64,000 nt of DNA from Ginglymostoma cirratum (Eukaryota): positions 10,067,624 through 10,131,623 of the forward strand of contig JAHRHZ010000218.1 in assembly GCA_024137785.1 (NCBI GenBank), in the 5' to 3' direction. The notes under the pieces were generated by a model. That model made no database searches. It was given only the letters and a program-made list of their open reading frames with translations, and was not told the DNA's origin. Made by a program: the position numbers and the translations under genes. Positions 13,701 through 64,000 of the stretch are shown piece by piece (the first letter of the stretch is position 1; every line of letters starts with the position of its first letter).

Positions 13701-13806
13701 GCCGTTTGTCCTGCTCTGCATGCACTGCACTGATTTTCCCAGTCATGCTGTAATTCAAGAAGAATGTCTACACCTGCATCCATGCTTGGGTGTACATTGT
13801 ACGGAA

Positions 13807-13966
13807 ATTGCTGGGAAAGCTCAGAGCTCTGAAGAAGGGTCATTAGACCCAAAATGTCAACTCTGCTTTCTCTCCAAAGATGCTGCCAAACCTACTGAGT
13901 TTGCCCAGCAATTTCTGTATTGTTTCTTATTTCCAGTTTCCACAGTTCTTTGTGTTTTTTTTTGCT
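13807..13966 (+). mobile_element. Short Penelope-type element with hammerhead-ribozyme remnant (13822-13865) and partial inverted arm
   Basis: Reads CAGAGCT-CTGAAGA-A-GGGTC-ATTA-GACCC-aAAA-tGTC-AACTCTG. Imperfect TSD TTGTAC(G/A)GAA at 13797-13806 and 13967-13976. Confidence 0.75.
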
Positions 13967-16289
13967 TTGTACAGAATCCTTGAATTCAGGACAAAGTTGT
14001 TCAGCATATGCCAAACAACTTCCAGTGAATGTTATCAGCTTTGAAGATCTGACAAAACCAGAAAACACTTCCACAATTACAGCAACTGCCAGTAGAAGTC
14101 AATCAGCAAGTGACTTAAAAGGATTTGATGATCCCTTAATATTGCTGGGGGTGTACTTCCTGCTACTAAAGGTCCGCTCAGCTGTGCATGTTTAAGTGAT
14201 AACAGTAGCTGGAACACTGTACTCCAGAGCCACAGCACTGGTTTTGAATTCATGTCTACTTTACGAACTTGCACTGGGCACTCCCAGCACACGTTAATGC
14301 TGTCACCAGTATGACATCTGACATGTCTTGCAGCAGGATTGTCTGCCCACTGCAAATTCCATTTTTGTACCAAATCACCACTCCTGGCACTGAGAAACCA
14401 AGATCTTCAGTGGAAATACCAATATCTGTACTCCACCAAAGAATGACCCAAATATTGGGATTCAAGGGAAGGACTACCATAACAGCATGGACTGGACTGG
14501 ACTGGACTAACGGATACTGAGTTCTACCTCTAGCATTCTCTACACACCCATTTAATACTAGTGTTCACAGAACTTTTGCAACACTGGGAAAGTATCAGGA
14601 GACAATGCATATGTTTCCCAGGAAGTATCCTTCACATCCCTCACTTTCCTGAAAGTGTTCCATTAGTTCCTGCTGAACGCAAAGGAAAGTAATAGAAAAG
14701 TAATGCTGAAGTTATTTCATTGCCACAACTAGTGGCTAATCCTATCCTATTCCAATATCTAGATCTTGTTCTGTTTGATTGGATGCAGTGCTATCAAACT
14801 ATTTTCTTAAAGGGAAATGGGCCACACCAGAAAGAAATAACTCCACCTCGATTCCTTCCTGCTGCTATACATTAGTCATGGGGAAGAACTCAAAACCAGC
14901 AAGCAACTGATTTCACTTTGTTGCCAAAAGGGAACTGTAATGGCAAGACTCATTTATTTGGCAGTGGGTTCAAATCTTAATCAGCCCAAGGTCTCCTTTA
15001 TGAGCTGTATCCACATCTGTCTTACAGCTGGCAATACTGAGTGATTGTTTCAGGAGCAAAGCACAGCCTTCTCATCGCTGAAGAGTCATTGTGAAGTAGA
15101 TCTTCTTGCATATGGAAGTGGGGGGCTGTGACCAATGGTAGGAACAAGAGGTTATGAAGCCTACCACCCGCTGGTCATTCTCCTGAACCTACCTCCACTT
15201 CCACCTCAAAGTAGGGGATGCCCATTAAGGTTTTTATGCATACTTTTTAAAATATATTTAAGGACCTTCTAACAAATTAATGCAACATTAAAATATATCG
15301 AGACAATTTGTTAGAAAAGGGAATTGCAAAAGATTTTCTTTTTAAAAATCACAAAATATAAATAAAAATCAATGTGGTAAACTTGAAGAAGTTCCATCTA
15401 GGCTTGTACAGATACCTTATGGCCTCACTGAATAGAAGATTGCAACACCTCTTTCTCATACCACTCTTTTCTACCGTTGGGCAGGACAAAGTGCAAATAA
15501 TTCCAGACTTTGTAAACCCGTCCCAGGGTAAAAATTGCATCCTAGGAGGTTCAGAGATTCATTTGGGGCTGCTGGTGGTTAGGCAGCATAAATCCTATAA
15601 CAATACCTCTTAAGCTTGTGTCAACAGACAGAGTGAAATAGCAAGCACTGATTTTTATAGCGTTGCAGGCAGTTTTCCTTTCAACTATTTAAGAGACAGG
15701 AGATTTAAGTGCTCTGATGGCTTCTTTGGTAGCTGTTCTGCTAGTCCTTTTTGCAGTTTGACTGTTCTCTTGATGTTATCCACTTTTCACATGTGTACCA
15801 GCTTGCCACATTTACCTTATCTGCCCTCATTCTGTCAGACAGTATGCTGCATTTTGAGGCATAGTCAGCTGAAGTCAGCTTCCATCTTATTCAGAATTTC
15901 AGAATTGAATATTTTGAAGAACATTGAGGGCAATTTTGGTGTGGTATAATTCCACAGAATAGCAGATTGGCAGATTAGCATTTCTCCTGCTTTTGCAATT
16001 AAATATCTGGAGAGATGTAAGTATCTGCTGATTTGCTGCCACTATAGTATTTATTTCTCCTAACTTCTCCCAGCACTAAAGCTCTCCAGTCAGCACATAT
16101 TGAACAGCTTGCTGGTGAAACAGATAATGTTGACATGCTCAGTATGCACCAGCAGCTGCTAACCTGTTCAAACAATTTCCCCCTATTTCTCGCACATTTC
16201 CAGACACATTTCTTTCTTTGAGGAATAGTGACATGGCACTGGACATTGGACTACAGTCATGCAAATAATCTTCTATCATCACCCTCAGG

Positions 16290-17250
16290 CTCCTGTGACC
16301 AAACCAATTTTAGATCAATCTTGCCAAATTATCTTGGATTACATGTATTTTTATCTTCTTCATTCAGTCTCCCTTGTTTGCTGAAATCCATATAAATTAC
16401 ATCAACTGCACTACCTCATCTACACACCCAATCACCTTGTCATAAAATTCAATCAAACTTGTTCGGCATGACCTCTCTCTGACAAAGCCATGTTGACTAT
16501 CTCTGATCAAGTCTTGCCTTTCCAAGTGGAGTTTAATTCACTCCAATAGTTTGCCTACCATTGATGTCATTTAGCCCTGTGGAATATAGCGGCTTATCGT
16601 TGTCTTTCTACGTCCCTGGTTTCTCTTCAACAGATATGTACCATGGTCTCTGACTTATCACCTTCTGCTTTCTGGATGCCCTGCAGCCATTCAGTGACAC
16701 CCCTGACCCTGGTTCCGGGCGATGCAATGCACCTTCCTGGAGTCACATCTGTGGCTGGAGAAAAGCCAGTCTGCATCCCTCTCTATACAGAGGCACCTGC
16801 CACTACTTCCTTTGGACTCCTGTTCCTCATCACTTGATTAGTTGAGCCACCCATAGTGCTGTGTTCCACAGTGGGACCTTTACTGTGATCCATTTCTAGT
16901 TATTGAATAGAATGGTTATTGAATAGAATGCCCTCTGGGGCTTTCCTGTCTGCCTGACTCATCCCATTTTTCTGCTTGGTGGTCACCCATTCCTTTTCTG
17001 ACTGCAGCTCTTTAGTCTGCAGAGTGACCCCCAAATCAGAAAATATGCTATCCACATCGCCTTCAGCCTCTGCTCCTCCAGCTGATACTGAAGTCCCAAG
17101 CTGTTCGAACAGGCAGCACTTCCACCAGTATTGTCAACCAGTTTTCCAGAACCATGCTGTAATTCCCACATGCTGTTGACAGCAAAACACACTGACTTGG
17201 GGTCCCCTGCCAGTTTCAGTTAAATTTAAAGAACCCTACATTTGACACTA
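16290..17250 (-). mobile_element. Internally deleted CR1 retaining ORF1 remnants (N-terminal C..SMWE motif, GDSL-esterase-like segment) joined to an RT fragment
   Basis: Minus strand shows CFAVNSMWEL near 17190, a decayed VVxGxS..RG..D..F....DSRKVHC..PGTRV segment at ~16700-16810, and RT-region sequence at 16290-16560. Confidence 0.6.
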
Positions 17251-19091
17251 CTGGAAATAAAGAGTTAAACTATTACCCTGAAGACCCAAATGCAAAACGC
17301 TGAACAAAACTATAAAGACAGTTTAAATCTCAATACAATATTTTAAAATAGTAAAGGATAGTAGGAAAAACAGAAAGGGCAGAAAAGAGAAATACCTGTC
17401 CATCACATCCTCAAGATGGCATACGAGTATGTGGACTCAATATGGCAGGGCTGTTATGGCTTATCTCCAAGTTTCTTTCTCTGTAGTGGAGCAAGAACCT
17501 ATTCCTACAGGGCAAGGTGGGTGGAAGGACAAATGCAGACAAAGCAACAGTTTCTTCCACCACTTGCCTAACTGACTACTGACCAAACTGCAGAAACTTT
17601 CATTCAAAGTACAGCTGCACCCATTTGCATGAGGTGATGATGTTAATTGCTACTTTTCAGCCCAAGGAGACTAGATCTTCCACTGAAAAATTTTTAAAAA
17701 GGCAAGAGAAGAAAGAAGTCCAGAAATCTGGAAGCTAAACTGTAAAATGCTAAGAGTGCAAGTAATAGGTTGATGAGTATTTGAAAAGAGAGACCAAAGT
17801 TTTGAGAATTTAACTGTCGTAATCTGGCAGTGGGATTGGCAAGTATGTAGGTTTGATGTAGTAATAGGTCCTTTTTGACCTTCACAAAAGTTATAAAGGC
17901 AAGTCATGAAAATTGATGAATAATTTACACAGAGAATCTCAATGGAGCAATGAAAAATATCAGAAAGCCAAAAGGAAATGAAAATGACACCAAAATGAAG
18001 GAGAATAAAGTAGAAATTAGAGGGGAGCATGCAGGTAGGGAAGTGGAGAAAACAGTCAAGTTGCCAAAGTTAGTGTTCTTGCCTGAGGGTTGCAGATTTC
18101 CAAAATACGTTGGCATTCAGGAAACCCTTTCTATTCAGTGAGTGATACCTTCTGCTGTCTTTCTCCTATTAAAATATGCTTTGATCATTCTTGTCGACAT
18201 ACAAATTACTTTGTTATAAATAAATGAAATACTTCATTCACTAAAACTTTAATGTATTAATAGTTTCCATAGCAGCTATTGTATTTTATTGGCATTTTTC
18301 CAACAGCTGTTTTTATTTTAAAATGCAACTTTTTCTGTCTTATTGCTTGAGCTTACATGGTATATATTACCACATATTTAATTTTATTTAATGGTTCTTT
18401 TCTCTTTGGGACTATAGTGTAGCCACTAGATTAGGCCTCTGGGAGGTGATTAGGCAATGAATGTAATATTAATGCCTTGGTTGCAGCACTAACTGTTACG
18501 TGTAAATATTTTGAATTTATGGTTATCACAAATATGAATAAGACACTCTGTAAATAGGTAATGACTGTGTTGTAGCTTGTTCTACTGTTCATATTTTGGG
18601 CACATTAAACAAAGTGTTAGCACTGATCAATATGCAAACTGCATTCAGAGCAGTTGACTTCTGTCTGAATATTTTATCTAGGGGCACAGTAATTTCTTAT
18701 AGGCGTTGATGGCTGTCAAACTTGAACTCTGAAAATCAGTCTCATGATCTCAGCCCAATTGATAGCTTGGTCCCTGTCAATTTTAAGCATTTTTCAGTGG
18801 TAGTTGGTTTGGTGTAATCTAACAGGACTAGCAGCAAAATAAGGAAAAGACACTCCCTGCCCCAGCATTAAAATGGGAACTAAATGACTCACAATGTTGA
18901 ATATTTGTAGAGGCATAGCTCCTCATAGCTTTGTCCATCAGTAAAGCCCTCTTCTTATCATGGATATTTGGTGTAAATTTGGTGTTCTTTGAGTATAGAA
19001 AACCTATTGGTCAGCTACTGTAAAGCTCAAGGTCACCAGTACAGGAAATCTAAGATTGGCAATATTTATTCGCGAACATAAAAACACAAAT

Positions 19092-19234
19092 GTGAAGAAA
19101 AAAATCAAAGTTACCATTTCTGAAATGTTAACTCTGATTTTTTCTTCACAGATGCTGCCAAACCTGCTGAGCTTTTCCAGCAACTTTTCTTTTGTTCCCG
19201 ATTTACAACATCCGCAGATCTTTGTTTTTTTTAG
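19092..19234 (+). mobile_element. Short Penelope-type palindromic element with ribozyme core deleted, 74 nt upstream of the FAT4 last-exon acceptor
   Basis: Inverted arms tgtgaagaaaaaaatcaaagttaccatttc / gaaatgttaactctgattttttcttcaca, family tail gatgctgccaaacctgctgagcttttccagcaa, and an exact 12-bp TSD AAAAACACAAAT at 19080-19091 and 19235-19246. Confidence 0.8.
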
Positions 19235-19308
19235 AAAAACACAAATATTATTGTACAAAATTGACTGGAAAGTTTTTGTGACAGCATGTTTTTTTTTATT
19301 GTTTCCAG

Positions 19309-21200
19309 ATTTTGATGGCTGCATCTCTTATGTGACATATAATGGAGAAATGCTGCCCTTCACTGGAAAGCACAGGGATGTTACAATATTGAAAAGTGAT
19401 CCTTCTGTTAAGATAGGATGTAGAGGTCCTAACGTGTGTGCAAGTGACCCGTGCTCAAGTGGACTGATGTGCGTGAACCAATGGTATGCATATGATTGCG
19501 TCCCACCTGGAGAATGTGCTTCCAGTCCTTGTCAGAATGGAGGGAGCTGTGAGCCTCTTTCAAAATCTGGATTTACCTGCACGTGCCCTGAACTCTATAC
19601 TGGGGAAACATGTGAGACAGTGGTGGCATGTGTCGGTGTTCAGTGTCCCCCAGGAACTATTTGCAGAGCTGGAGTAGATAAAGGATACACCTGCAGTGCT
19701 AAACCACAAGCTGAGGAGCTTTCTTTGCCACTCTGGGCGGTGCCCGCGATAGTAGGCAGCTGCGCCACATTCCTTGCTCTCATTGTACTTGGTCTGATTG
19801 TGTGTAACCAGTGTCGAGGCAAAAAGGCAAACGTTCAAAAGGATGGGAAGACAAAGAAGAAGAAAGAGAAAAAGAAAAAAGGTAGTGAGAATGAAGGTTT
19901 CGATGATCCAGATAACCTCCCTCCATATGATGAGGAGCTGACTGTGAGAAAGCAGCCTGAAGGAGTTCCAAAACCTGATATAATTGAGAGGGAAAATCCC
20001 TACTTGATCTTCGATGAGACAGACATCCCACACACAACAGATACGTTGCCAAGTGGGCAGCCCTGCATAGGGCCTGAAACAGAACTTGAGCATTATGACA
20101 TAGAAAATGCCAGCAGCATTGCCCCTTCAGATGCAGACATTATACAACACTATAAGCATTTTCGTAGTCATACCCCTAAATTTTCCATCCAAAGGCACAG
20201 TCCACTTGGGTTTGCCCGACAGTCTCCTCTCCCACTAGGAGCAAGTAGTTTAAGCTATCAACCTTCCTATAATCAAGGATTGAGAACAGCCACACTGAGT
20301 CATAGTACATGCCAAAATCCTAACCCATTGTCTCGGCACAGCCCTGCACCATTCTCAAAGCCAGGAAGTTTCTACCGTAATAGCCCAGCAAGAGACTTGC
20401 ACCTAGCAAGAAGGGAAGGAAGCCCTAATGATATACATTCAGATGTTTGCCAGCCTGGCATTTTTAATTATGCTTCACGACTAGGAAGGAGGAGCAAAAG
20501 TCCCCAGACCATGACAAGCCATAGTCATGGTTCAAGGCCTGGCAGCCGCCTAAAACAGCCTATTGAGCAGATTCCTCTGGAGACCACACCACCCGTAGGA
20601 TTGTCCATAGAGGAGGTTGAAAGACTCAATACCCCTCGCCCTAGAAACCCAAGTATCTGTAGTGCAGATCATGGACGGTCATCCTCAGATGATGACTGTA
20701 GAAGACCTCTGTCCAGAATGAGAAACCCAGCTGATGGTACGCCTGCCCCAGAATCATCTTCAGACAGTGACTCACATGAGTCCTTCACCTGTTCTGAGTT
20801 TGAGTACGACAGGGACAAGCCTGCAGTCTACACTTCACGAATGCCAAAACTGTCTCAAGTCAATGAATCTGATGCAGATGATGAAGACAATTATGGTGGC
20901 AAACTGAAGCCACGCAGATATCATGGTCGTAGGGCAGAAGGAAATTCTACAGTCCTGCAGGCAAGTCATGAAGACTATAAGACACAACCCAAGCTTGGAC
21001 CACACGGAGCTGTGACAGGAGCGTTTAACTGGGACAGTCTATTAAATTGGGGTCCTGGTTTTGGGAATTATGTGGATGTTTTCAAAGATCTTGCATCACT
21101 TCCAGAAAATGTATCAACAGAGGCAAAAGAAGAAGCATTAAACACTGTTGCACAAAGTGCAGCTACAACTAATGATGCAGAAGCAGAAGAATATGTATAG
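19309..21200 (+). CDS. FAT4: FAT4 terminal coding exon: end of LamG2, EGF repeats, transmembrane helix (~19725-19805) and intracellular domain
   Basis: Acceptor tttttattgtttccAG in phase 1, giving (D)FDGCISY. Contains EGF motifs (CASSPCQNGGSCEP...CTCPELYTGETCE), hydrophobic LPLWAVPAIVGSCATFLALIVLGLIVC then a basic stop-transfer run, and FAT4 ICD motifs HYDIENASSIAPSDADIIQHYK and FNWDSLLNWGPGFGNYVDVFKDLASLP. Ends EEYV then TAG at 21198-21200. Confidence 0.97.
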
Positions 21201-23127: not shown

Positions 23128-23486
23128 GAGTAAGCAATGGCCTAGAGGTATTATCCCCAACTATTAATCCTGAAACTCCATTTATATTCCAGAAACCCAG
23201 TTCACATCAGGCCATGGCAGATGGTGGAATTCGAATTCAGTAAAAGAATCTGGAATTAAGAGCCTAATGATGACCATGAAGCCATTGTCAATTGTCAGTA
23301 AAACACATCTGGTTCACTAACGTCCTCAGAAAAGGAGATCTCTCATCCTTATCTGGTCTGGCCTTCATGTAACTCCAGACCCAAAGCAATGTGGTTGATT
23401 CTTAACTGCCCTCTGGACAATTAAGGATGGGCATTAAATGCTGGCCTAGCCAGAGATGCCCATATCTGTGAGTGAATTTAAAAAAA
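23128..23486 (+). mobile_element. tRNA-headed SINE, internal-deletion derivative of the LINE at 45836-47740
   Basis: A-box-like TGGCCTAGAGG at 23138. Body homologous to 45836-46116 up to actgccctctg, joined directly to the LINE 3' end (caattaaggatgggcattaaatgctggcc...A-rich tail). Confidence 0.8.
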
Positions 23487-24040: not shown

Positions 24041-24232
24041 TTGGCGAAGCGGGACTTGGAGATCCTGGTGGACAGGTTGGTGCAGAAAAGGGATATCCTC
24101 TTCCCACAGGACCAGCAGAGGATGCCAAGACACCACACCCTGCCAGCTGGAACAGTGCAGTCTCAATCGTCCAGAGGAATGCTCAGTAATGCAACAGAAG
24201 GTCATTGATCTACCCACTCCGCAAAGTTAAGT
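24041..24232 (+). mobile_element. Harbinger Myb/SANT-like (MSANTD/NAIF1-type) ORF remnant
   Basis: LAKRDLEILVDRLVQKRDILFPQDQQRMPRHHTLPA, frameshift, WNSAVSIVQRNAQ*C..KVIDL. Homologous to the copies at 26557-26743 and 37114-37577. Confidence 0.65.
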
Positions 24233-29170: not shown

Positions 29171-29672
29171 CGGGTGACAGATTCTGCTGCCTCTACTATT
29201 GCCTACTTACTGCTGATGTCAATTAGGAGTCTGGTTATCGGCATGGACTACTGATTGGGGGGTGAGTTTGTGTTCAGCATGGGACCTGGCATCAGTGGTG
29301 GTGGCGAGGTGGGCCCAGTAGTGAAGAGAAGGCATCTAAAGAGTGGCAACACCCCTTTGGTGGGTCCAGCACATGCAGTGGCGAGGCAGTGGAGGCACAG
29401 GTGGCATTGGTGAAACAGCTCAGGACTCAGGACTCATGGCAGAGGCAGTGGAACAAAGATAGACTGTCTTATATCTTTTTTACTCTTGTTATTCCTAAAC
29501 TATTCAAAATGGTGGCAGCTTGTGACAACAGTTGAAGCTTTTCACTCTGTTTCACTGTATTATTAACTGTAAAATGCAAGTGGCAATAAATCATTGAATC
29601 CAATTCAGTTAGGTTATAATTTGGTTGATCATTGCCATTCATAGTAGTAAATAAGCATAGTATGAGAATAGA

Positions 29673-29896
29673 GACAACACAGTGTGGAGCTGGATGAAGA
29701 AAGCAGGCCAGGCAGCATCAGAGGAGCAGGAAAGCTGATGTTTCGGGTTGGGACCCTTCTTCAGAAATTTCTGGAGAAGGGCCCTGAGCCGAAATGTTAA
29801 CTTTCCTGCTCCTCTGATGCTGCCTGACCTGCTTTCTTCATCCAGCTCCACACTGTGTTGTCTCTGACTCCAGCATCTGCAGTTCTTACTATCTCC
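29673..29896. mobile_element. Palindromic Penelope-type element with two back-to-back hammerhead-ribozyme cores
   Basis: 98-bp inverted arms 29670-29767 / 29768-29865 with no spacer. Minus core CTGAAGA-A-GGGT-CCCA-ACCC-GAAA-CATC; plus core CTGgAGA-AGGGCCCTGAGCC-GAAA-tGTT. 15-bp TSD TAGTATGAGAA(T/C)AGA at 29658-29672 and 29897-29911. Confidence 0.85.
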
Positions 29897-31869: not shown

Positions 31870-32700
31870 ACTTTATAAAATAGTGGTTTAGCCTCAACTG
31901 CAGTATTGTGTCCAATCCCGGGCACCAACTTCAGGTCATTGGAGTGATGCAGGGAAGATGAAGAATAATGATCCCGAGGATGAGAGACTTCAGTTGTGTG
32001 GAAGGATTAGCAAATCTGGGGTTGTTGTTTTTATAGAATACAATATTGAGAGGAGATTTGATAAAGTGTTCAAAGTTATGAAGGACCTGGGCAGAACATG
32101 TAGAAAGAAGCTGTTTCCCATTTGGGTGGGGGATGGGGAATATTGGCGACCAGAGAACGACATTTTGGGGTGATTTGTAAAAGAATCAACAGTGACAGCA
32201 ATTAGCGAAGACAGTGGTGTAATAGTAATGTTACTAAGCTAGCATCCAGAGGACACTAGTTTGAATCCCATCATGGTAGATGGTGAGATTTGAATTCTCG
32301 TCTTATGGTAACCATTGTCGATTGTTGTAAAAAGTAATTTCCATTTCATTCACATATATCTTTTAGGGAAGTAAATCTGCCATCCTTACCTGGTCTAGCC
32401 TACATATGACTCCAAATCTGCAGCAATGTGGCTGTCTCTTAAATGCCCTCTGAGTAATTAGGGATGGGCAATAAACTGTGGCCTAGCTAATGACACCCAC
32501 AGTCCCATGTATAAAATAAAATAAAATCTGGAATGCACTGTCTTAGAATATGGTAGAAGTAATTTCAAGCACACTTTCAAAATGTAACTGGATAATACTC
32601 TGAAGAGAAAATATTGCAGAACTATTGAGAGAGAGAGCAGGAGAGTGGAACTAGATAAGTGCCTGTTACAGAGTTTTGCCATAGACAAAATGGGTTCAAT
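31870..32700 (+). mobile_element. Decayed CR1 3' fragment interrupted by a SINE (32206-32526)
   Basis: tttataaaatagtggtttagcctcaactgcagtattgtgtccaatccc encodes an LYK.LVRPQLxYCVQ-like motif. CR1 3' sequence resumes after the SINE A-rich tail. Confidence 0.6.
32206..32526 (+). mobile_element. tRNA-headed SINE (same family as 23128-23486)
   Basis: A-box-like gtggtgtaatagta, B-box-like gtttgaatccc, same body and same tgccctctg junction to the LINE 3' end, (ATAAA)n tail. Confidence 0.8.
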
Positions 32701-37113: not shown

Positions 37114-37577
37114 TCTTGAGGAGGGCAGAAGGTCATTACCTTTTCCCTCTGTTGTTGAACATTACTCCAGACATGGATCTCTGGGTAAAAACTGAAAGAA
37201 CTACAGATACAATAAATCGGAAACAAATGAAAAGAAATTACTGGAAAAGCTTAGAAGGTCTGGCAGCATCTCTGGAGAGAAATCAGAGTTAACATTTCAA
37301 GTTGAGTGATCCATTCTGAGGAAGTGTCATTTGACCCGAAACGTTAATATTTATTTATCTCCAGAGATACTGCCAGATCTGCTGAGTTTTTCAGCAATTT
37401 CTCATTTGGTTATGGATCTCTGGGTGGCAACCTCAAAGTAGCAGGCAGGGTCTGGTTCTGTGGTCTCCTCTGATGGTCCTGGAGAAAGAGGACAGAGCTC
37501 TACTCCACAACCGTGTCGATTAGGTCCTTCAGGCCTCTGTCTGTAAACCAAAGTGCTGGCTTCTTTTTGTCAGCCAT
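37114..37577 (-). mobile_element. Harbinger Myb/SANT-like ORF remnant split by the palindromic ribozyme element
   Basis: Minus MADKKKPALWFTDRGLKDLIDTVVE*SSVLFLQDHQRRPQNQTLPA..EVATQ, then the insertion, then ..SNVQQQREKV..NDLLPSSR. Confidence 0.7.
37187..37411. mobile_element. Palindromic Penelope-type element with hammerhead core (+ strand 37316-37345)
   Basis: Inverted arms; core CTGAGGA-A-GtGTC-ATTT-GACCC-GAAA-CGTT. Exact 14-bp TSD ATGGATCTCTGGGT at 37173-37186 and 37412-37425. Confidence 0.85.
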
Positions 37578-37667
37578 ACCTGGGGCAATTCTTTCCACAC
37601 TCCAAAAGTGAACAAGAGTTCATTACTGGCAGTGATTCACCTGTGTATGTTCATTAAAAGAAAAATC

Positions 37668-37800
37668 AGCTCTGAAGAGGAGTCACATCTGATTCAAGGG
37701 ATTAATTTGTTTTTCAATGCAGGTTCTGCCAGACTTGCTGAGTTTCTCCACTACTTTTTATTTCAGATTTCTGGCATCTACAGTATTTTGCTTTCATTTC
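37668..37800 (+). mobile_element. Single-arm, older copy of the hammerhead-bearing element
   Basis: CTGAAGA-G-GAGTC-acatct-GATTC with decayed GAAA, then the family tail tctgccagacttgctgagtttctcca...tttcagatttctggcatctacagtattttgc. Confidence 0.6.
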
Positions 37801-38096: not shown

Positions 38097-39590
38097 AGTC
38101 ATAGAGTTGTACAACACGGAAACAGACCTATCTGTCCAACCAGTCCATGCCAAACATAATCCTAAACCAAACTAGTCGCATCTGCCTGCTCCTGGCCCAT
38201 ATGCCCCCAAAACTTTCCTATTCATGTACTTATCCAAATGTCTTTTCAACATTGTAATTGTACCCATCTCCACCATTTCTTCAAAAAGTTCATTCCACAC
38301 GCAAACCACCCTCTGGTAAGTAAAATTGCCCTTCATCTTTTTTAAATCTCTGTCCTCTCACCTTGAAAATGTGTCCCCTAGTCTTGAAATCCTCCCTCCT
38401 AGGAAAAGACAATTACCATAAACTCTATCTATACCCCTCATTATTTTATAAATTTCTATCAGGTCTCCTCTCAACCTCCTATGCTCCAGTGAAAAAACTA
38501 CCAGCCTACCCAGCCTTTATGACTCAAACCTTCCATTCCTCGAATATCCTGGTAAATCTCTTCTGAACCCTCTCCAGCTTAATAATATCCTTCCTATAGC
38601 TGGGCAACTAGAACTAGATACAGTATTCCAGAAGAGGCCTCACCAATGTCCTGTACAACCTGAACTTGACTTCCCAACTCTTATACTCAAAGCAGTGAGC
38701 AACGAGGGCAAGTGCCCCAAACGCTTTTTTAATCACTCTATCTATATGTGATGCAATCTTCAAAGAATTATGTAGCTGAACGCCTGGTCTCTCTGTTCCA
38801 CAACACTACCCAAGGCCCTACCATTAATTGTATAAGGCCTACCCTTGTTTGTTGTACCAAAATGCAATCCCTCACATTTATCCAGATTCATAGATCATAG
38901 AATCTCTACAGTATGGAAACAGGCTCTTCGGCCCAACAAGTTCACACTGACCCACAGAGCATCCCACCCAGACCCATCCCCCTAGAACCCACCTAACCTA
39001 CACATTCCTGAATGCTATGGGTAATTTAGCATGGCCAATCCACCTATTCTGCACATCTTTGGACTGTGGGAGGAAACCGGAGCACCCGGAGGAAACCCAC
39101 ACAGACATGGGGAGAATGTGCAAACTCCACACAGACAGTCACCGGAGGGTGGAATCAAACCCAGATCCCTGGCGCTGTGAGGCAGCAGTGCTAACCATCT
39201 GCTGTTTTTCAGCCCATTGACACATTTGATCAAGATCCCTCTGTAATCTTAGAAAACCTTCTTCACTATCTACTATGCCACCAATTTTGGTGTTGTCAGC
39301 CATCTTACTAACCGAGCCTTCTCATCCAAATCATTGATATAAATGACAAACAAAAGAGGGCCCAACATTGATCCCTGTGGGACACCGCTGGTGATGGGCT
39401 TCCAGTCCAAAAAGCAAACTTCCACCACCACTCTCCTACTGTTAAGCCAATTGTGTATCCAATTGGTACGCTCTCTCTGAATCTCATGTGACCTAATTTT
39501 ACGAATTAATCTCCCATGTGGAACCTTATTAAAGACTTTACTAAAGCCCAAGTAAACAATGTCTACTGCTCTGCCTTCATCAATCTTCTC
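38097..39590 (-). mobile_element. CR1 LINE 3' ~1.2 kb, interrupted by an HE1-type SINE
   Basis: Minus ORF 39273-39698 contains RT motifs [22 protein letters not shown]...[23 protein letters not shown]. 3' tail at ~38097. Confidence 0.9.
38889..39197 (-). mobile_element. HE1-like V-SINE
   Basis: Minus strand: tRNA-like head (tggttagcactgctgcctcacagcgccagggatctgggtttgattcc), V-domain (gtgtggagtttgcacattctccccatgtctgtgtgggtttcctccgggtgctccggtttcctccc) and CR1-like tail. Confidence 0.9.
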
Positions 39591-39649
39591 TCCTGGAGTT
39601 ACACCTCCTAGCTCTAATGTAGTTCTATAACCACTGCCTTTTCCCATCC

Positions 39650-39940
39650 AGAATATTTTACAATCTTCCAGCTCTGGCCTTTTAGGATCAAACCACAATC
39701 ACTCCACCATTGGAAACTATGCTTTCTTCTACCTAGACCTCAAGATTTGATTTTCCCTGTTTAATTTCTTCTACTTTCAAAAATCCTTCTCTTCCTTTGT
39801 GACCTTGTTAAAAGTCACGTCTTTGACTGTGCTATTCATCAAGCATACTTCAGAATCTCCTTTTTATAATGTTCCTGTGGAGTATCTAAGGATATTTTTC
39901 TACACTCATGGCATTTTACGAGCATACATTGTTATTATCA
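39650..39940 (+). mobile_element. L2-like 3' end, probably continuous with the fragment at ~37830-38090 before the CR1 insertion
   Basis: Ends ...ctgtggagtatctaaggatatttttctacactcatggcattttacgagcatacattgttatt, resembling the reverse complement of the 28648 terminus. Confidence 0.45.
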
Positions 39941-42873: not shown

Positions 42874-43160
42874 ATCATTGAATCCTTCCACTGTGGATAC
42901 AGAACGCGTCCCATCAAATCCACACCAATTCTCTGAAAAGCATCTCACTCAGACCCAAAACCCCTACCCTATCTCTGTAAACCTGCATTTCCCATAGCTG
43001 TTCCACCTAACCCGCACATATTTGTGGGAGGAAACCGAAGCTCCCAGAGGACACTCACACAGACACAGGGAGAATGTGCAAACATTACGTGAGGCTAGAA
43101 TTGAACCTTGGTCCCTGGCACTGTGAGGCAGCAGTGGTAACCACTGAGCCACTGTACACC
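42874..43160 (-). mobile_element. HE1-like V-SINE
   Basis: Same head, V-domain and tail as 38889-39197, more diverged. Confidence 0.85.
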
Positions 43161-45835: not shown

Positions 45836-47740
45836 GAGGAGGCTATAGCCTAGAGGTATTTTTGCTTGACTATGAATCCAGAAACTCAGCTAACATTCTG
45901 GGGGCCTGGGCTTGAATCCTGCTGTTTAAATTTGAATTCAATAAAAGTACCTGGAAGTAAGAATCTAAAAATGACCATGAAACCATTGTCGATTATTGAA
46001 AAACCCAACTGGTTCACCAATGCCCTTCATGGAAGGAAATCTGCCATCCTCACCTAGTCTGGCCTACATGTGACACCAGAACCACAGCAATGTGGTTGAC
46101 TTGCAACTGCCCTCTGAAATGGCTTAGCATGCCATTCAGTTGTGTCAATCGCTACAAAGAATCAAAGAAATGAAACCGGACAGAACACCTGACATTGACC
46201 TTGGCACCGGAAAAGCTAACAGTGGCACAGCACTGACAATGCTGAAAGTCCTCTTTACTAACACCTGGGGGATTGTGCCAAAATTGGGAGAGCTGTCACA
46301 TAGACTGATCAAGCAACAGGCTGACATAGTCATACTCACAGGATCGTATAATGTCCCAAACACCACCATCACCATCCCTGGATATGCCCTGTCCCACCGG
46401 CAGGACAGAGCCAGCGGAGGTGGCAGCAGAGTGGTACATAGTCTGGAGGGTATTCCCCGGGGAGTCCTCAACATTGACTCCCGACATTATGAAGTCCCAT
46501 AGCTTCAGGTTAAACATGGGCAAGGGAACTTTCTACTGATTACCACATACCGCTCTCCTTAGGCTGATAATTCAGTATGCCTTCACGCTGAACAACACTG
46601 AGATGAAACGCTGAGGATGGCAAGTGCACAAAATGTACACTCTGTGAGGGATTTTAATGTCCACCACCAAGAGTGGCTCAGCAGCAGTACTACTGATCGA
46701 GATGGTTGGGTCCTAAAGGGCGTAGCTGCTAAATTAAGTTGGTAGCATGTGGTGAGGGAACCAACAAGAGGGAAAAACATACTTGACCTCATCCTTACCG
46801 ATTTACTGGCTGCAGATGCATCTGTCCATGACAGTACCGATAAGAGTGATCACCATACAGTCCTTGTGGAGACAAAGTCCTGCCTTCACAATGAGAAAAC
46901 ATTTCATCATGTTGTGTGTCACCATGATAAATGGGATGGACTTTGAACAGATCCAGCATCTCAAGATGAGCCATCCGTGAGGTTCCAATGGCCATTAACA
47001 TAGCAGAATTGAACTTTAGCAAAATCTGCAAACTCAAGGGGTGCATATCCCCCACTCAACTGTTACCATCAAGCCAGGAGCCTGGTTAAGTAGCATGCAG
47101 GGGGGCATGTGAGGAGCAGCACCAGGCATACCTGAAAATGAGGTGTCAACCTGGTGAAGCCACCAAACAGGACTTCTTGCATGCCAAGCAGCATAAACAG
47201 CAAGTGATAGATAGAGTTAAGTGATTCCACAAAAAATGGGTCAGATCTAAGCTCTGCAGTCCTGCCACATCCAGTTGTAAACGATGGTGGACAACCCTGT
47301 TAGGGTTCCAGCAGAACCACTCAGCCTTGGTTCAAACATGGACAAAAGAACTAAATTCCAGAGATGAGGTGAGAGTGACAGCCCTTGGTATCAAGGCTGC
47401 TTTCAACCAAATATGGCTTCAAGGAGCACGAGCAAAACTGGAATCAATAGGTATCAGGGAACAAACTCTTCAAGGTTTGGAGTCATACCTGGCACATAGG
47501 AAGATGGTTGTAGTTGTTGGGGGTCAGTCATCTCAGATCCAGGACATCTCTGCAGGAATTCCTCAGGGTTGGGTCCTCAGCCCAATCGGCTCTCCACGTG
47601 TAAATAAAGGCTGATTTGGTGATGGGATACTGGCCTCTGTGGGGTTATTTTGCCACCACCTTCTCAAGGGCAACTACAGATGGGCAATAAATTCTGGCCA
47701 GCCTGCAACAGCCACATCCCATAAAATGAATAAAATAAAA
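45836..47740 (+). mobile_element. Internally deleted LINE (CR1-group-like APE endonuclease + RT) with tRNA-like 5' head
   Basis: APE motifs LKVLFTNTWGIVPKLGEL...DIVILTGSY...IPGY...RQDRASGGG and PTRGKNILDLILTD...SDHHTV. RT motifs VTALGIKAAFNQIW...AGIPQGWVLSP. A-rich 3' end and possible 6-bp TSD AATCAT at 45830-45835 / 47740-47745. Confidence 0.85.
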
Positions 47741-48244: not shown

Positions 48245-48472
48245 TCAAATAATTCCACAGAGGCCCGTATCCCACACCAAGTCACCCTTTATTTACACAT
48301 GAACACTCCTTGACTATAGCAATGGCTCATTCAGACTTAGATACTCAACATCTCTGACACTCACCCTTTTAAATGTCAACCAGGGCTCCCTGATTGGACC
48401 AGATTAACAGCGCCAATCAGGGAACTCACAGTCTATGATGTCCAGCCAGCTGACATTGTTATAATCACTACA
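48245..48472 (-). mobile_element. Solo LTR
   Basis: Reverse complement starts TGTAGTGAT and is homologous along its length to 57076-57310. 5-bp TSD GATAG/GATGG. Confidence 0.75.
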
Positions 48473-49194: not shown

Positions 49195-51405
49195 AGAATC
49201 AAATTTTTGAGCTCCATTCAAGAGAGCTTTCTCTTCAACCTATGACAAACCCAATAGAAAGGGTGTAATTTTAGACTGGATCTGCGGATTTGAAGCTGGG
49301 CAGGTGAATGAAATAGCAATGCGTTCACATTTTGGAGACAGTGACCATAATGCAGCTAAATGTAGCATAATTATAGAATGAGTCAAAGATAAAGCTTGAC
49401 TAAATTAAGGAAAGGTAAGTTTTACAAAGCTGAGAGATGATTTGACAGAAGTGGACTGGATACAGCTATATGAAGGCAAGTCACCAGAAATTAGTGAGAA
49501 GCATTCAAAAGCGAGATTCTAGAGGCAAAATATGTATGTGTCCCCACATGAAAAGGTGTAAAACTGTCTAATCTAAAGCTGTGCTTGTTTCACAGAAACA
49601 TACAGGGTAAGATGAAACATAAAAATGATGGCAATCTCAAAAAAAAACTTATTTTGTAGCTTGGAGGAGCATAGAAGGTGAATAAAACATGAAATGAGAA
49701 ACACAATTAGGAAAGTAAAGAGAGGTTAAAAAAATGGCGATTAAACTGAAAGAAAATCCAAAGATGTTTTATCAGTACACAAAGAGCTAAAGGATGACTA
49801 AGGAATGTGTTGGGTATATCAGAGATATACACTGTAACTTGTGTGTGAATACTGAAGATTTGTTCAGTGTTCTTAATGACTGCTTTGTGTTTGCAAAGAT
49901 GATAGAGAAATCCTAGTTAAAAAGGAGGATTAAAAAAAACTCAATAAAAATAAGCATAATCAGAAGTATTGGAAGGGCTGATTCCTTGACGGCAGATAAA
50001 TCACCAGGGCTCAATCAATTGTTACCTTAAAGGAAGCCAGGGAATAAATAACAAATGGTCATGGGAATCATTTTCAATCTTCACCATATACAGGCAAGGT
50101 TCTAGAGATCTGTGAATGTTGGACCATTTCACAATGGTGAGCAAATTTCTAGAATTAATATAAAATATAGGATTATATGTCACTTAGTAATGTGTGGATT
50201 AATCAAAGATAGTCAACATGGTTTTGTTAAGGGATGGCTGTGTATTACTTACATGATTGATTTTTGTTTTGAAGTAGTAACAAGGCAAATCGGGTGAGTT
50301 GGATCCAAAATTGAGTGACAGGAAACTTGTCAGGTAATTGTCAAGAGATGTTTTTCTGAATGGAAATTGGTTTCTATTGGTTCCATAGGGCTTAGTGCTA
50401 AGTTCTTTGCTGTTTGTGGTATATATTAACACTTCAGACTCAAATGTGGAAGGCATGATTAGGAAGATCAGAAATGTTGGGAAAATTGGCCAAATGGTTG
50501 AACCTGGAGAGAAACGGCTGTTGACCGCAGGATGGTAACAATGATTTGTAAGTGGCAAATGCAACTGAATCTAGAGAAGTATGAAGTTGGTATTCGGGAG
50601 AAAAAAGGAAAGAAGAGAATTCGCAATAAATGGAAAGATATTGAGAAGGATAGACAAAGTGAGAGATGTTGGAATACTTGACCACAGGATCCTGAAGATG
50701 GCAGGACAGGCAGATCTGATAGTAGTGAAGAGGTTTTTCTGTATTAGGTGAGGTTTCAAACACAAAAGCAAGGATAAAATACTGGAACTACACAAGACAT
50801 AGGCCACAGTTGGAGTTTAGTCTGTGTTCTAGTCACCACACTACAGGAAAGACATAATTGCTCTAGAGAATACAGGGGAGATTCACAAAAATGTTGCCAG
50901 CAATGTTCAATTTAAGCTGCATGACTTCAGAGATTCCACATATGCCGATTGATGTGTTGACACTTTGACTCTCGGATCATAAAGACACCTCTACATACAA
51001 ACAGAGATCTGAGCAGCAGCAGGAAAATAATTACAGGAAAAGTCAATTGCCAGGACTTGATAATTGCAGCTTCATTGAAAGTTTGGGTCCGTTGAAGTTG
51101 TTTTCCTTTGAACAGAGGAAACTGAGAGGTGACTTATTTCAGGTGTACATACTAATGAAGGGATTGGGTAGAATGGACTGGGAATACTTGTTTCCCCCAA
51201 ATAGAGAGGTGATTCATAGAAGCATTAGAGGACACATGTGGAAAAATGTTTTCCACCCAGCCCAACTATGTGTGGAAGCCCTCAACTCATTTAAAAAGAA
51301 CTTTGATCTGCACCTGAAGCATTGTAACCTGCAAGGCTAAGTGCTAGAAAGTGGGAATAGAATAAACCCTCGCAGACATGATGAGCTGAAAGGCTTACTT
51401 CCTTG
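49195..51405 (+). mobile_element. Old, fragmented CR1 LINE (endonuclease end, RT, 3' end)
   Basis: Recognisable decayed motifs HFGDSDHN (~49327), LIKDSQHGFVKGWLCIT (ORF 50112), LKLFSFEQRKLRGDLFQVY (ORF 51047). Confidence 0.8.
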
Positions 51406-53552: not shown

Positions 53553-53886
53553 TAGAATCCTTACAGTGTGGAAGCAGGCCATTTGGCCCATCGAATTTAC
53601 ACTGATCCTCTGAAGAGCATTCCACTCAGATGCATCATCTACCCTATCCCTTTAAGCCCACATTCCCCACCTAACCTATATATTCCTGGATATTATGGGC
53701 AATTTAACATGGCCAATCCACTAACCTGTACGTCATTGGACTATGGGAAAAAACTAGACCACCCGAAGGAAACCCTCAGAGACATTGGAAGAACATGCAA
53801 ACTCCACACAGACTGTCTCCCAAGCATGGAATCAAACTCAGGTCCCTGGCACTGTGAGGCAGTAATGCTAACCATTGAGTCACCAT
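53553..53886 (-). mobile_element. HE1-like V-SINE
   Basis: Homologous to 38889-39197. Confidence 0.85.
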
Positions 53887-53904
53887 AGTACTCAGAACTT
53901 AAAG

Positions 53905-54795: not shown

Positions 54796-54990
54796 CCTTT
54801 TTTTAGCTATTTATGATGTAAGCATTAGTATGTCAGAGAAAGTATTTATAAAATCTCAAAGATTGGATTCTAGTTCTAAGTATGTCTCCTACCAGCAGGC
54901 ATCACTGCTGAGAGGCATGGTCCTATTCATTAGCTGAAGGGTGTTTGACCATTTTCCTATATCTGCCCCCAATCCTTTATTCAACACCTT

Positions 54991-57075: not shown

Positions 57076-57310
57076 TGTAGTGATTGGAATGGGGTTGGCT
57101 AGCTGGATCTCACTGAGTATGAGTTTCCTGATTGGGCCTATTAACCTGGGCCAATTAGAGAGTCCTGGCTGACAGATATAACAGGAGTCTCAGGGACTGT
57201 CAGCATTCTAGGGACTGGCTCTGAGCTAGCTAGTTATTGTCCAAGAACTGGGTGTGTGTAAATAAGGTGTGACTTGGTGACAGGATACTGGTCTCTGTGG
57301 AGTTATTTCA
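57076..57310 (+). mobile_element. Solo LTR
   Basis: TGTAGTGAT...TTATTTCA termini, inverted CCAAT boxes, TATA-like gatataa, polyA-like aaataag, 5-bp TSD GGGAA/GGCAA. Confidence 0.75.
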
Positions 57311-57329
57311 GGCAAAGATCTGGAAAACA

Positions 57330-60060: not shown

Positions 60061-61594
60061 ATACAACACAACTTAATTCAATGACAATTCCAAAACTTAC
60101 TCCTCCTGTATCCTTTCCATCAGCTATTCGCACTGCCAAAAATAGTCACTACAAAATAAAAATAAGTCCGTCCATACCATACCACAAAGGCATGTCAACT
60201 AATCACACTAAAAGCCTGAGTTAAATGTGCCTATGCTTGTTCCATCATTCCTAGACAGTGCTATTCCAGTGATGACGGAGGCTGATAATCCTCAGTGGGG
60301 ATAACTATAGATAATTTCTCAAAACTACATTTAAACATCTCTAGCTCTTGAAGGTGCAAATTCAAAGTGAACTTCTTAGCATGAATATCATTAGCCTGGG
60401 CTGGCTGATTGGCGGCAGCAGCAAAAGTATAGGTAACATGGTGGCTGGATGAATGCCGTCAACCTGAGAAAGGACAGCAGGTTTGTGCTCCATCGCCATT
60501 CACACAAGTCATCTCAGACCCTTTGAACTCTGGTGTCAGAACCTATGATGACCGCAATCTGGAATTGCATAACTTCAGCCTGAGCCCCCAGTGCAGCACT
60601 CCGACATTGAGCGACTTCTGATCAGGCCTCAGTAGAAGCTGAGGCATTGGCTGACAGATGCTGCATTATATGGTTGGGCCCACAAAGTGTGCTAATGGAG
60701 CCGGGCAGCACTTTCAAATTTTAAGAGACTAAGCCCTGTGCTTTGTTGGTGCTGGGCTATTCTAACATTCCTGAAATGACTGCAGGCTTTCTGTCAGGCC
60801 TGCCAATCTACCAAATATTTAATTCATATACCCATCGGCCTTCTTCTGAATGTCACCTCAGCAAAGAGCTCATATAATTCCTCTATGCAGAATTCCTGTG
60901 TGGCCAGCTGACAAGCTGGCATATGTCCTAGCCTTGCTCACTAATCTGACAGCAGACAACTTTTAACTTGCCATGTGCACCTCGAAGCTATTCTGTAAAG
61001 GACCTGAGCTGGAGCACGCAAGTATGAACAATGGTATACCCTCTTAATCGCTATTTTCCTGCTTTTCCTTTGCTGGTTGGAGGTCTTGGGCATTTGAATA
61101 GAGAAAGTGCAGGTTGTGGTGAGGGGAGAGAAACCAGAACAGTATGGGATACACAGAAGGATGTGAGGAGGGCCTGGATTGAGGAGTTGTGCCCTTTTGT
61201 TGCTCCAATCATGGAACGCAATGTCTCCTCAATGTGTAGTTTTATCTACATGCCCCCACTGACTCCCATCCACACTGTCTCCTCCACCCACCCTCTCAAT
61301 GCCAACCCTCCTGCCCTCTTCCAAGTCAACCAATTAGTTCCGACCACCTCCTTTTATGCCTTGTCCTTCAGCAGGCAGGAAAGCATGACAGTGAAGTGTG
61401 GTATAATATGCCTGGGTAATGTGACTGTGTGGTTAAAAAGGTGAAAATGTGAGAGATTTACAGCAAAGCTAAATGTAAGAACATGAGTTGAAACTATTAA
61501 GCATGAGTCATGACTGAAAGATTTTTGTTGTGAGATGTGGATGTGGTGTATTGAGCTGCCTACATTGTGCGGTTGTTTGGCTCTGGCACTTTGA

Positions 61595-61735
61595 AAGTTT
61601 GAAGAAGGGTCAAAGGACTTAAAACATCAACTCTATTTTCTCTCCACACATGATGCAAATTTGCTGAGATGTGCCAGCAATTTCTGTTTATCTTTATTTC
61701 AGATTTCCAGAATCTGCAGCTTTTTGCTTTAATTT
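61595..61735 (+). mobile_element. Single-arm copy of the hammerhead-bearing element
   Basis: AGT-tTGAAGA-A-GGGTC-AAAG-GACtt-aAAA-CATC-AACT, then the family tail (tctctccacacatgatgc...gctgag...ccagcaatttctg...ttcagatttccagaatctgcag). Confidence 0.7.
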
Positions 61736-61739
61736 ACTC

Positions 61740-62900
61740 GTCTACCTAGTTCCATTAATCTTGTAAAATTCATCCTGTCCCACTGCCAAATTTGATGTAT
61801 TATTACAAAGGTGTCAAAAAGGCACCAAATCTTTGATAGCTGGATGACATCACAACATGTGACATGCACATATGAAAGGTGTCCATCTCACTCTCAATTA
61901 ATGAGTCAGGCAGTTTGGCTGCAGTCAGTTATGTATGTAGTGTAAATGTTATATAAGTTAGCATAGAACTCGGACAATAGGTATATCATCAACGTACGTA
62001 GTTAGTGTTGGTGATAAACATCAACACACCTGTTTCAGCAAAATCGCAATCTTTGCCGTAAATGATACTTGAGGTAATGAAAAGGGAAGTTCTCAAATCG
62101 TATCTTAGTTGCAGTGGTGATTTATCCAATGAAACCACATCACACATCTCTCCTCCTCACTATCTCCTGCATCTTAAAGCCTCTAGTACAGCATTAGAAC
62201 ATCCTGGAGCTTGCTTCCTGTTACTCCTGTGCTAGTTTTGTCATTCCTGACTCTTTTGGTATACCTTCCAGCACCTCACCTTTCCTCTAAGTCTTACCGA
62301 TAGGCTTTAGGCTACGGTTGTCACCATTTTGCTCAGGAATGCAGTGACTAAACAGTGCACATTGTACTGACCGTACATTTCAATGATTCAAACAAGCAGG
62401 TATTACGATAGTAGCGTACTTCACAGAAACAATAGGTTCAATTTAAGAGCATTACAATCCCTATGCCATTTTTTGGGTGTGTTCTCAGACTTTGAAGCCA
62501 ATATGTTTACCTTGGATGTATATGCCGATGTAATTTCCAGGTTGGTAATTTCACTGCATTCCAATGCCGTGTAAACATGATCCATTTTGGCTCAGGATGT
62601 ATTTGTCTGCCTGGTGATGGTGGACTATAGTTTGTGTTTTAACATTCGCAGTGCATAGCAATGGCTTGATGTGACACAGATGCCATTTACTCACATGTGT
62701 ATTTCATCAGCTTTGGGCCTGCTCCTGTTATCTGATTTATTGCAAACTCCTGTAAACTGTTCAGTGCACGGTGACAAAGTGTTGACTTTACAGTGATGTT
62801 GGCACATGTATTGTGTGAAAACATAGACTATCAAAGATTGCACAAAATTAGATGCTTGCTGACAAAACCCTGTTAAAATATTCCCGACATATTTGCCAGA
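61740..62900 (-). mobile_element. Possible old Penelope-like ORF remnant
   Basis: Minus strand PKWIMFT.. (~62590), IGFK-like (~62500) and IG*ITTATKIRFE (~62130; YIGQT..RF.EH-like). Very decayed. Confidence 0.35.
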
Positions 62901-63022
62901 CAAAACAAATTTTCCTATTCATTGAGGTAACATACACTATTTAAAGCAGCATTTTCCCTTTTTAAACCCAGTATCAATAACAGAGTCTCGCCGTATAAGT
63001 AAAGCTCAAATTGGATTTAGTC

Positions 63023-63315
63023 AGTCATACAGCTGTTCGGCATGAAAATGGACCCTTTGGTCCAACCTGTCCATGCTGACCAGATATCCTAAATTAATCT
63101 AGTCCCATTTGCTAACATTTGGCCCATATCCTTCTAAACCCTTCCTATTCATGTCCTCATCCAGATGTCTTTTAAATGTTGAAATGGTGGAGGCTGGTAC
63201 AATTACCTCTGGCGCCTCATTCCATATACGCACCACCCTGTGTATGAAAAGGTTGCCCCTTTGGTCCCTTTTAAATCTTTCCCTTTTCACCTTAAACCTA
63301 TGCCCTCTAGTTTTA
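63023..63315 (-). mobile_element. CR1 LINE extreme 3' end
   Basis: Minus ORF ERFKRDQRGNLFIHRVVRIWNEAPEVIV...TFKRHLDEDMNRKGLEGYGPN. Homologous to 10116-10410. Confidence 0.9.
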
Positions 63316-64000
63316 AAGTACTATTCCACTGGACAAATTAAGGTGTCAATCCTTAGGAACAGAGAGGGAAGTGTAGAAGATACCAATGAAGTAGAATTCG
63401 ATGAGTGCTGCTGAATTTTAAGACTACATTGTACATTTTGCTAAACTGATTCTGTTGGGAGAACGAGCAGCAGGAGACTGCAATTAGAGACTTTTGTGTA
63501 AAACCATATAGTTATGAATACAGACAGGTTGCAGATCAAAACTTGGGCTGGGGTGAGTTTGTCACCTCTGGGATGGAAAAAGGCTTAGGTAGGAGACGTT
63601 GAAGACTTCTTTGAGGGATGAGGAAAGATGAAACACTCTTGGCTCACATTAAGAGGTACAAAATGCATTGAATTTGAAGAGCCACCAGCTTCTATTTAGT
63701 GAGAGTCCAAGAAGACAGTCAGCTGCAATTAAATTTAAATCAGTCTTCCAATTACACTGGGATCTTGTTTGAATATGTTGTTGAGGTTTACTGCTGATGA
63801 CATGAATCCTGTTACCACTAAAATCAACAATGGTTAAGTCCAGTAAAAACAAAAACATGCAGCAGGCCAGCCAGCATCTATGGAGAGAAAAAACTAAGTC
63901 TGTGTTTCAAAAGTGATCAAAAATTAGCTCAGTTTTTTCACTTTACACCACCACAGAGATTTCAGTTTTAAATTAACACTTACTCAAGCTAAAACTAATT

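Follow-up and report, generated by a model that had tools for sequence, protein, structure and literature searches.

How did short, hairpin-forming repeats with the core of a hammerhead ribozyme come to be inserted, often as mirror-image pairs, along one stretch of the genome of the shark Ginglymostoma cirratum? The stretch, hereafter the window, comprises 64,000 nucleotides (GenBank assembly GCA_024137785.1, contig JAHRHZ010000218.1, positions 10,067,624 to 10,131,623 of the forward strand). Its repeats are most likely short, decayed insertions of the hammerhead-bearing end of the pseudo-long terminal repeat (pLTR) of a Penelope-like element (PLE), made by PLE machinery. The element class, the ribozyme and the inverted layout have been published already. 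No description of the family itself in sharks was found in the open literature, although Repbase, Dfam or subscription papers could already hold one; the available parts of PMC6765202, PMC6155905 and PMC5625713 contain none. The origin of the inverted PLE ends, the one-sided tail and the role of the hammerhead are stated as open in PMC11167929, 10.1101/2021.04.23.441226 and PMC3846280. The value of the family is regarded as moderate: it leaves the element class unchanged and its copies are decayed, and it supplies a dense fossil record of PLE integration.

The repeat family and its hammerhead core

Self-comparison with BLAST and profile searches with nhmmer yielded nine strong arms at seven loci, designated A to G (Table 1), which corresponds to about one copy per 9 kb and about 1.7% of the window. 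The family is real: in profile runs with one locus left out at a time all seven loci were regained with E values between 1.6e-4 and 1e-29, and the best E value in the reversed window was 1.4 or higher. An earlier note on this DNA, which had listed at least six related elements plus a fragment at about 63845-63910 and estimated one copy per 10 kb, is borne out in both respects. The pairwise identity of the arms was 60-90%; locus C represents a second subfamily (60-81% identity to the other arms), and at least two subfamilies are present overall. The family has no tRNA-like head (the only tRNA in the window lies at 4553-4626) and no A-rich tail, and a tRNA-derived short interspersed element (SINE) was rejected on the missing head and on arm ends that are U-rich, not A-rich. 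No head-to-tail tandem array of the family was found in the window, and no upstream sequence is shared among loci E, F and G.

Regarding the hammerhead core, the CUGANGA box is reached by six arms at five loci (A, C, D, E and F), four of which carry it intact and two with one mismatch. The column majorities are C3 (5/6), U4 (6/6), G5 (6/6), A6 (5/6), G8 (6/6) and A9 (6/6), followed by an extra base after A9 in all six arms and by G10.1 in 7/7; the pair G10.1-C11.1 is G-C in five of seven arms and G-U in the other two. G12 is kept in six of nine arms, the three losses being G-to-A changes at a CpG, and the remaining columns are A13 (9/9), A14 (8/9), A15.1 (8/9), U16.1 (8/9) and H17 (C or U in 9/9). 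Positions 15.2-16.2 read TG, CA or CG, with CG intact in one arm and TG or CA in most others, as expected of a decaying CG palindrome; the CpG decay reported earlier is evident here and in the three G12 losses.

The majority base in every core column is that of the published minimal hammerhead (GAAA, palindromic 15.2-16.2 and UH by column majority), and all core bases are kept in only two of the six arms, 29764 (-) and 37316 (+). Five copies had been said to retain the hammerhead order; five loci do reach the CUGANGA box, but the GAAA-NN-UH half of E is degraded, F lacks C3 and G12, A lacks G12, and A6 is replaced by G in the long arm of C. A strict descriptor applied to the whole window found two perfect cores, both within the family, whereas 60 dinucleotide shuffles averaged 0.23 such cores, the highest count being 2. 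Stray copies were also sought by scanning bacterial and archaeal genomes for the hammerhead motif, with no match. The hammerhead arms at 37316 and 37672, both on the (+) strand and 356 nt apart, have a possible dimer geometry, but the second core is degraded.

Stem II measures 4-5 bp and pairs in 82.9% of the alignment cells, which agrees with the earlier remark that it mostly still pairs, but the variation consists mostly of G-C to G-U changes. Stem I pairs at three of four positions in each of the two intact-core arms. At locus A the 7-bp stem I described before at 13822-13865 does pair, but its outer three positions (13822-13824) also form the end of the inverted arm (13800-13824), which leaves no more than about 4 bp (13825-13828 with 13859-13862) for the ribozyme itself. 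Both intact cores (29764 (-) and 37316 (+)) would be preceded in a transcript by their own antisense arm, with predicted hairpins of -176 and -84 kcal/mol, respectively, and present-day cleavage is unlikely because the cores would be folded into these long hairpins. Today's copies are almost certainly inactive, judged from sequence. The ancestral ribozyme may have been active; cleavage, after the GUC/GUU triplet, would have required a dimer or the help of a protein.

Insertion anatomy and known relatives

In loci A, B, C and D an inverted arm meets a longer one head-to-head, and each locus is bounded by target-site duplications (TSDs) of 10-15 bp, as had been recorded earlier for four copies with inverted partial duplications. 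The two TSD copies match at 9/10 positions in A, 12/12 in B, 14/15 in C (11 exact) and 14/14 in D; at E, F and G none above background was detected. In a null of 400 random placements an exact 11-bp repeat occurred three times and one of 12 bp or more never; since exact repeats below 12 bp do arise in this way, the TSD of A is the weakest. No target-site motif was derivable from the four TSDs. The inverted arms of A to D are four of the five top-listed inverted repeats within 400 bp in the window. Their length varies between about 20 and 100 nt, with an unpaired remainder of 31-84 nt on one side; an inverted arm is absent from three loci.

From G10.1 the short arms of C and D run on for 87 and 88 nt, and the long arms extend 31 and 34 nt further; the short-arm ends agree although the two subfamilies are only about 68% alike. 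This one-sided tail of PLE type, which was absent from the earlier note, is suggestive as a PLE signature, not proof. The start lies 3-6 nt before C3 in six arms, at stem II in one and at G12 in two, with one further start just before G12 (locus G) and one internal. No arm begins at the predicted cleavage site, which argues for an uncleaved template RNA. The centres of B and C are near-perfect palindromes with 1 and 0 nt between the arms, and a few bases are shared at the junction of A. At locus D the CUGANGA box occurs only in the short arm and the tail only in the long arm.

These features can be set beside published systems, as far as the available parts of the papers cited here describe them. 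PLE hammerheads have an extra base after A9, a G10.1-C11.1 pair and a palindromic two-base stem III (PMC4209133, Cervera and De la Pena 2014), and the present core shares with them its order, the extra base, G10.1-C11.1, the two-base stem III and possibly a short stem I. The topology proposed in the earlier note, that of the minimal type I hammerhead of PLE pLTRs, is upheld by this agreement, and the link of the family to Penelope is well supported by anatomy as read from the sequence. The same source reports dispersed single minimal hammerheads from truncated PLEs in many animals, some of them as opposite-strand pairs 100-700 bp apart, and thousands of minimal hammerheads in coelacanth and Xenopus; in contrast, the arms abut directly here, and a stem II of 4-5 bp is at the short end of the published range. 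No shark row was seen among the alignment rows available from its supplement. The present family would add cartilaginous fish to the lineages with abundant minimal hammerheads.

The protein of the anole PLE Poseidon_Ac cuts and extends both target strands in vitro and is predicted to form a dimer; on uncleaved RNA it initiates reverse transcription at two internal sites, between which the tail lies, one of them 111-118 nt after the start of stem II (PMC11167929, Frangieh et al. 2024). The likeness, by anatomy and description and not by sequence alignment, lies in a ribozyme about 90-130 nt upstream of the start sites of reverse transcription, a tail between the two starts and an uncleaved template. 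The open reading frame (ORF) of Poseidon_Ac begins at stem II and its start site is AC-rich, whereas no ORF was found here and the ends are U-rich. Penelopes of the rotifer Adineta vaga show head-to-head pLTRs, junction palindromes, TSDs of 8-10 bp, a 31-bp tail on one arm and solo pLTRs, for which self-priming fold-back has been proposed (PMC3846280, Arkhipova et al. 2013), and PLE insertions with a one-sided tail of 30-40 bp are also reported in 10.1101/2021.04.23.441226. Head-to-head arms, junction palindromes, TSDs, a one-sided tail and single arms recur in the shark window; the A. vaga cases are few and mostly flank an ORF or captured DNA, whereas here the whole insertion consists of two pLTR-end fragments, about once per 9 kb. 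Animal non-LTR retrozymes are non-coding and PLE-related, with a type I hammerhead and TSDs longer than 4 bp, and are reported from one chondrichthyan (PMC7229834; 10.64898/2026.07.22.740005); they are defined by head-to-tail tandem units, unlike the family described here, which the chondrichthyan families of the latter source, as far as available, may or may not include. In its way of working the element corresponds to the pLTR end of a PLE that has an endonuclease; it is not an autonomous PLE, a tandem retrozyme, a miniature inverted-repeat transposable element (MITE) or a tRNA SINE.

Relatives were sought with element translations in two sense frames. In total, 16 distinct proteins matched (one and two among longer proteins, 14 in a full one-frame profile search), 12 of which match element loci; P0029, P0030, P0036 and P0037 were rejected as repeat or low-complexity matches, three having no match to element loci and one a short, weak match. 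Family translations occur in gene models of Rhincodon typus, Heterodontus francisci and Chiloscyllium plagiosum. An antisense arm precedes a sense arm in five of the 12 family-matching proteins, three of them whale-shark models. In P0001 and P0003 both arms reach the 5' edge of the ribozyme, with two extra residues between them that are absent at locus C; the junction therefore recurs at one place but arises afresh with every insertion. The antisense arms of P0041 and P0035 include the tail, with scores above those of shuffles.

Table 1. Copies of the hammerhead repeat family in the window (ca. marks approximate boundaries).
Locus	Feature	Positions	Strand	Remarks
A	overall	13807-13966
A	left TSD	13797-13806	+	10 bp; right copy 13967-13976, 1 mismatch; length in chance range, but at both element boundaries
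A	short inverted arm	13807-13824	-	copies internal stretch 13895-13919; 88% complementary
A	long arm	13825-13966	+	hammerhead 13825-13862, C3 at 13829, G12 to A; body, U-rich tail
B	overall	19092-19234
B	left TSD	19080-19091	+	12 bp exact; right copy 19235-19246
B	short inverted arm	19092-19120	-	begins at hammerhead G12
B	long arm	19121-19234	+	begins at G12; without CUGANGA box and stem II
C	overall	29669-29896
C	left TSD	29658-29668	+	11 bp exact, 15 bp with 1 mismatch; right copy from 29897
C	short arm	29669-29767	-	intact-core minimal hammerhead, C3 at 29764, predicted cut after 29737; second subfamily
C	long arm	29768-29896	+	A6 to G; one-sided tail is the final 31 nt, 29866-29896
D	overall	37187-37411
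D	left TSD	37173-37186	+	14 bp exact; right copy 37412-37425
D	long arm	37187-37312	-	begins at stem II; 34-nt one-sided tail 37187-37220
D	short arm	37312-37411	+	intact-core minimal hammerhead; C3 37316, CG palindrome 37342-37343, predicted cut after 37345
E	single arm	ca. 37666-37800	+	CUGANGA intact at 37672; 3' half of core degraded
F	single arm	ca. 61594-61735	+	C3 and G12 lost
G	diverged fragment	ca. 63851-63912	-	from about G12 into body; E 1.6e-4 when left out

Proposed origin and competing explanations

Under the proposed origin, the reverse transcriptase-endonuclease of a PLE would bind an uncleaved RNA that begins a few bases before the ribozyme, and would nick both target strands 10-15 nt apart, which would give the TSD. 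Priming of complementary DNA would take place within the RNA, about 87 nt downstream of stem II at one site and about 118-130 nt downstream at the other; each molecule would run to the ribozyme at the 5' end of the RNA, and two of them would be joined head-to-head, often via a few shared bases. The outcome would be a hairpin element with a tail of 31-34 nt on one side, and single arms would result when only one strand was extended. The PLE enzyme, the priming of both strands and the source of the RNA are presumed from this anatomy. Regarding that source, the 5' end of the mRNA of an autonomous PLE with internal initiation is the likeliest template, with a little less than an even chance, and a short non-autonomous pLTR transcript is a possible but not a favoured one. 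If the RNA was ordinary PLE mRNA, internal initiation alone would give short copies with fixed ends and no master element would be needed; a short non-autonomous transcript would leave identical traces, and the window cannot separate the two sources.

On this reading the inverted, mirror-image layout records how the PLE enzyme presumably inserts DNA, and a small, dense family reduces PLE insertion to a ribozyme, two start sites and a TSD. With thousands of copies from a single shark genome, two-strand priming could be tested against self-priming, and the inserted 5' end could be shown to be independent of cleavage. At the local density, a whole shark genome would hold events of this kind to the order of 10^5, which would suffice to decide the priming mode computationally.

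Several results weigh against the proposed origin. When one mismatch was allowed, the descriptor gave 11 matches against a null mean of 6.25; as this excess is slight, the descriptor, suggested as a check in the earlier note, is weak evidence on its own, and the case rests on the column consensus. Two other suggested checks gave no support: the 17 matches of an Rfam scan up to E 10 included no hammerhead family, and stem II covariation was not above shuffles, 134 of 500 reaching the score, in an alignment of only seven rows. (MicroRNA models matched by the hairpin arms in the same scan were rejected, being far below their cut-offs.) Stem I pairs in 64% of cells over 4 bp, one non-homologous row included, and none of the six hammerhead stretches folded clearly better than shuffles (best z -1.92). 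The tail fits two of the four two-arm loci, the short arms of A and B ending elsewhere; by a rough binomial estimate the chance of such a fit is about 0.05. The U-rich arm ends differ from the AC-rich start site of the anole element. A tail after a sense arm was not detected in any of the 12 proteins, a test of low power in which gene models can splice.

The partner enzyme was likewise not found. None of the 16 database matches to element translations carries a reverse transcriptase or a GIY-YIG domain, and a Pfam scan of 180 of the 236 window stop-free stretches of at least 62 aa found no PLE domain and no GIY-YIG; both results count against the origin proposed. The TSD-bounded loci contain no ORF of an autonomous PLE (telomerase-like reverse transcriptase plus GIY-YIG), and element translations together with Pfam revealed no sequence homology to an annotated PLE. 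These protein-level searches are insensitive. ORFs of transposable elements are often masked from gene sets.

Among the alternatives, a dedicated, SINE-like non-autonomous family, in which short master loci supply a hammerhead RNA of 130-150 nt that is copied in trans by a PLE enzyme, is a possibility of some standing, if short of probable. It would account for seven uniformly short loci with 5' ends clustered at the ribozyme and no common upstream sequence, for their density, for the presence of at least two subfamilies and for element translations that never match a protein with a reverse transcriptase; pLTR-derived non-autonomous retrozymes are moreover described in vertebrates, including one cartilaginous fish, in the available part of 10.64898/2026.07.22.740005. 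However, internal initiation on full-length mRNA predicts equally short copies with fixed ends, tandem units and a tRNA head are lacking, and the failure to match an enzyme comes from insensitive protein searches. The earlier note had assumed just such a non-autonomous family mobilised by Penelope machinery; hammerhead, arms, TSDs and tail fit a PLE, but no PLE enzyme was found, and the self-standing status of the family was only deduced.

A PLE origin in which a single molecule (antisense RNA or cDNA) folded back and primed its own inverted arm, in place of priming on two strands, is considered unlikely. The near-perfect palindromic centres of B and C are of the kind taken as evidence of self-priming in the available part of PMC3846280, and the few shared bases at the junction of A would also suit it. 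At D, however, each arm has sequence that the other lacks, so that copying of one from the other is impossible without a later deletion. Mismatches between arms (36/238) exceed those between TSDs (2/51) with p 0.04 (non-CpG p 0.085), a comparison biased by the choice of TSDs for likeness.

A narrower version of two-strand priming sees each hairpin as a two-nick, two-template fossil, made by a dimeric PLE enzyme with one start site per strand from two RNAs with an uncleaved ribozyme at the mRNA start; this is doubtful at present, and two templates are treated as a lead. In its favour, the arms of locus C differ at 9/35 ribozyme positions but at 1/63 elsewhere (p 0.0003; non-CpG 5/29 against 1/63, p 0.011), and D is not a simple fold-back. 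Against it, the arms of D show no significant excess of differences in the ribozyme, and divergence between loci is similar in the ribozyme (30%) and outside it (26%); gene conversion or mutation near palindrome centres could explain the differences at C. If the two-template version were true, the copies would be a by-product of internal initiation, with no need of a master element.

Mobilisation of a SINE by a long interspersed element (LINE), with inversions from twin priming and a chance hammerhead-like stretch, is very unlikely. TSDs of 10-15 bp would fit target-primed insertion, the window contains LINE-type reverse transcriptase fragments, and the hammerhead statistics of single copies are weak. 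Twin priming, however, inverts non-overlapping parts of one RNA, whereas the arms here duplicate the same stretch; a tRNA head and a poly(A) tail are absent, and the PLE consensus is followed in all core columns, in the extra base and in the CG palindrome. A MITE, or another derivative of a DNA transposon, with an incidental hammerhead likeness would also be short, abundant, hairpin-forming and non-coding, but is hardly tenable and already largely refuted, since the supposed terminal inverted repeats vary from about 20 to 100 nt with 31-84 nt unpaired on one side and none at three loci, and the TSDs measure 10-15 bp, in place of the terminal inverted repeats with a fixed short TSD that the earlier note had named as the mark of a DNA transposon.

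Gene models and genomic setting

The repeat is translated in the shark gene models P0001, P0003, P0031, P0040 and P0041, in one case twice within a PIP5K-like model, which reflects either an annotation artefact or exonisation. The family is also translated in P0002 (NCBI MCY5962476.1), a hypothetical protein from a Salmonella assembly, where its contig measures 305 bp, most likely as contamination with vertebrate DNA.

The window has a G+C content of 40.7% and an observed/expected CpG ratio of 0.21, the latter typical of a methylated vertebrate genome. It includes the last exons of FAT4, the final one matching named tetrapod and teleost FAT4 proteins at 69-75%; in a tree of 14 rows, no shark row among them, the window protein was placed in an unresolved fork outside teleosts, amphibians and amniotes. 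Loci A and B lie inside the last FAT4 intron (donor 7071, acceptor 19308), in sense orientation to the gene, and the remaining loci lie downstream of FAT4. Hairpins in transcribed introns are potential double-stranded RNA.

Copy B contains a pyrimidine run followed by CAG at 19126-19151, 157 nt upstream of the true FAT4 acceptor at 19308, and predicted use of this acceptor-like site would lead to a stop codon at the end of B. Most arms have a similar acceptor-like stretch after the predicted cleavage site, from which the ribozyme may have been situated near the 3' end of a PLE intron. A stop-free frame of 733 codons (18999-21200 (+)) runs through copy B into the last FAT4 exon; its 100 intronic codons are probably open by chance and could mislead gene prediction.

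A tRNA-Lys(UUU) gene or pseudogene, probably intronic, occupies the single tRNA position given above, on the (+) strand upstream of the last FAT4 exons seen. Decayed LINE-like fragments at 39276-39698 (-) and 47225-47611 (+) are the two generic RVT_1 matches of the Pfam scan, far from the elements; we take both to be LINE-type from their motifs, and presumably 46128-46499 (+), 50969-51337 (+) and 8797-9195 (-) are further fragments of this kind. Self-comparison also revealed four unclassified interspersed repeat families unrelated to the hammerhead family, with members at 10108-10683, 38097-38660 and 63018-63317; at 38898-39198, 42880-43152 and 53553-53883; at 23228-23450, 32310-32487 and 45929-46117; and at 47595-47650, 48247-48472 and 57076-57308.

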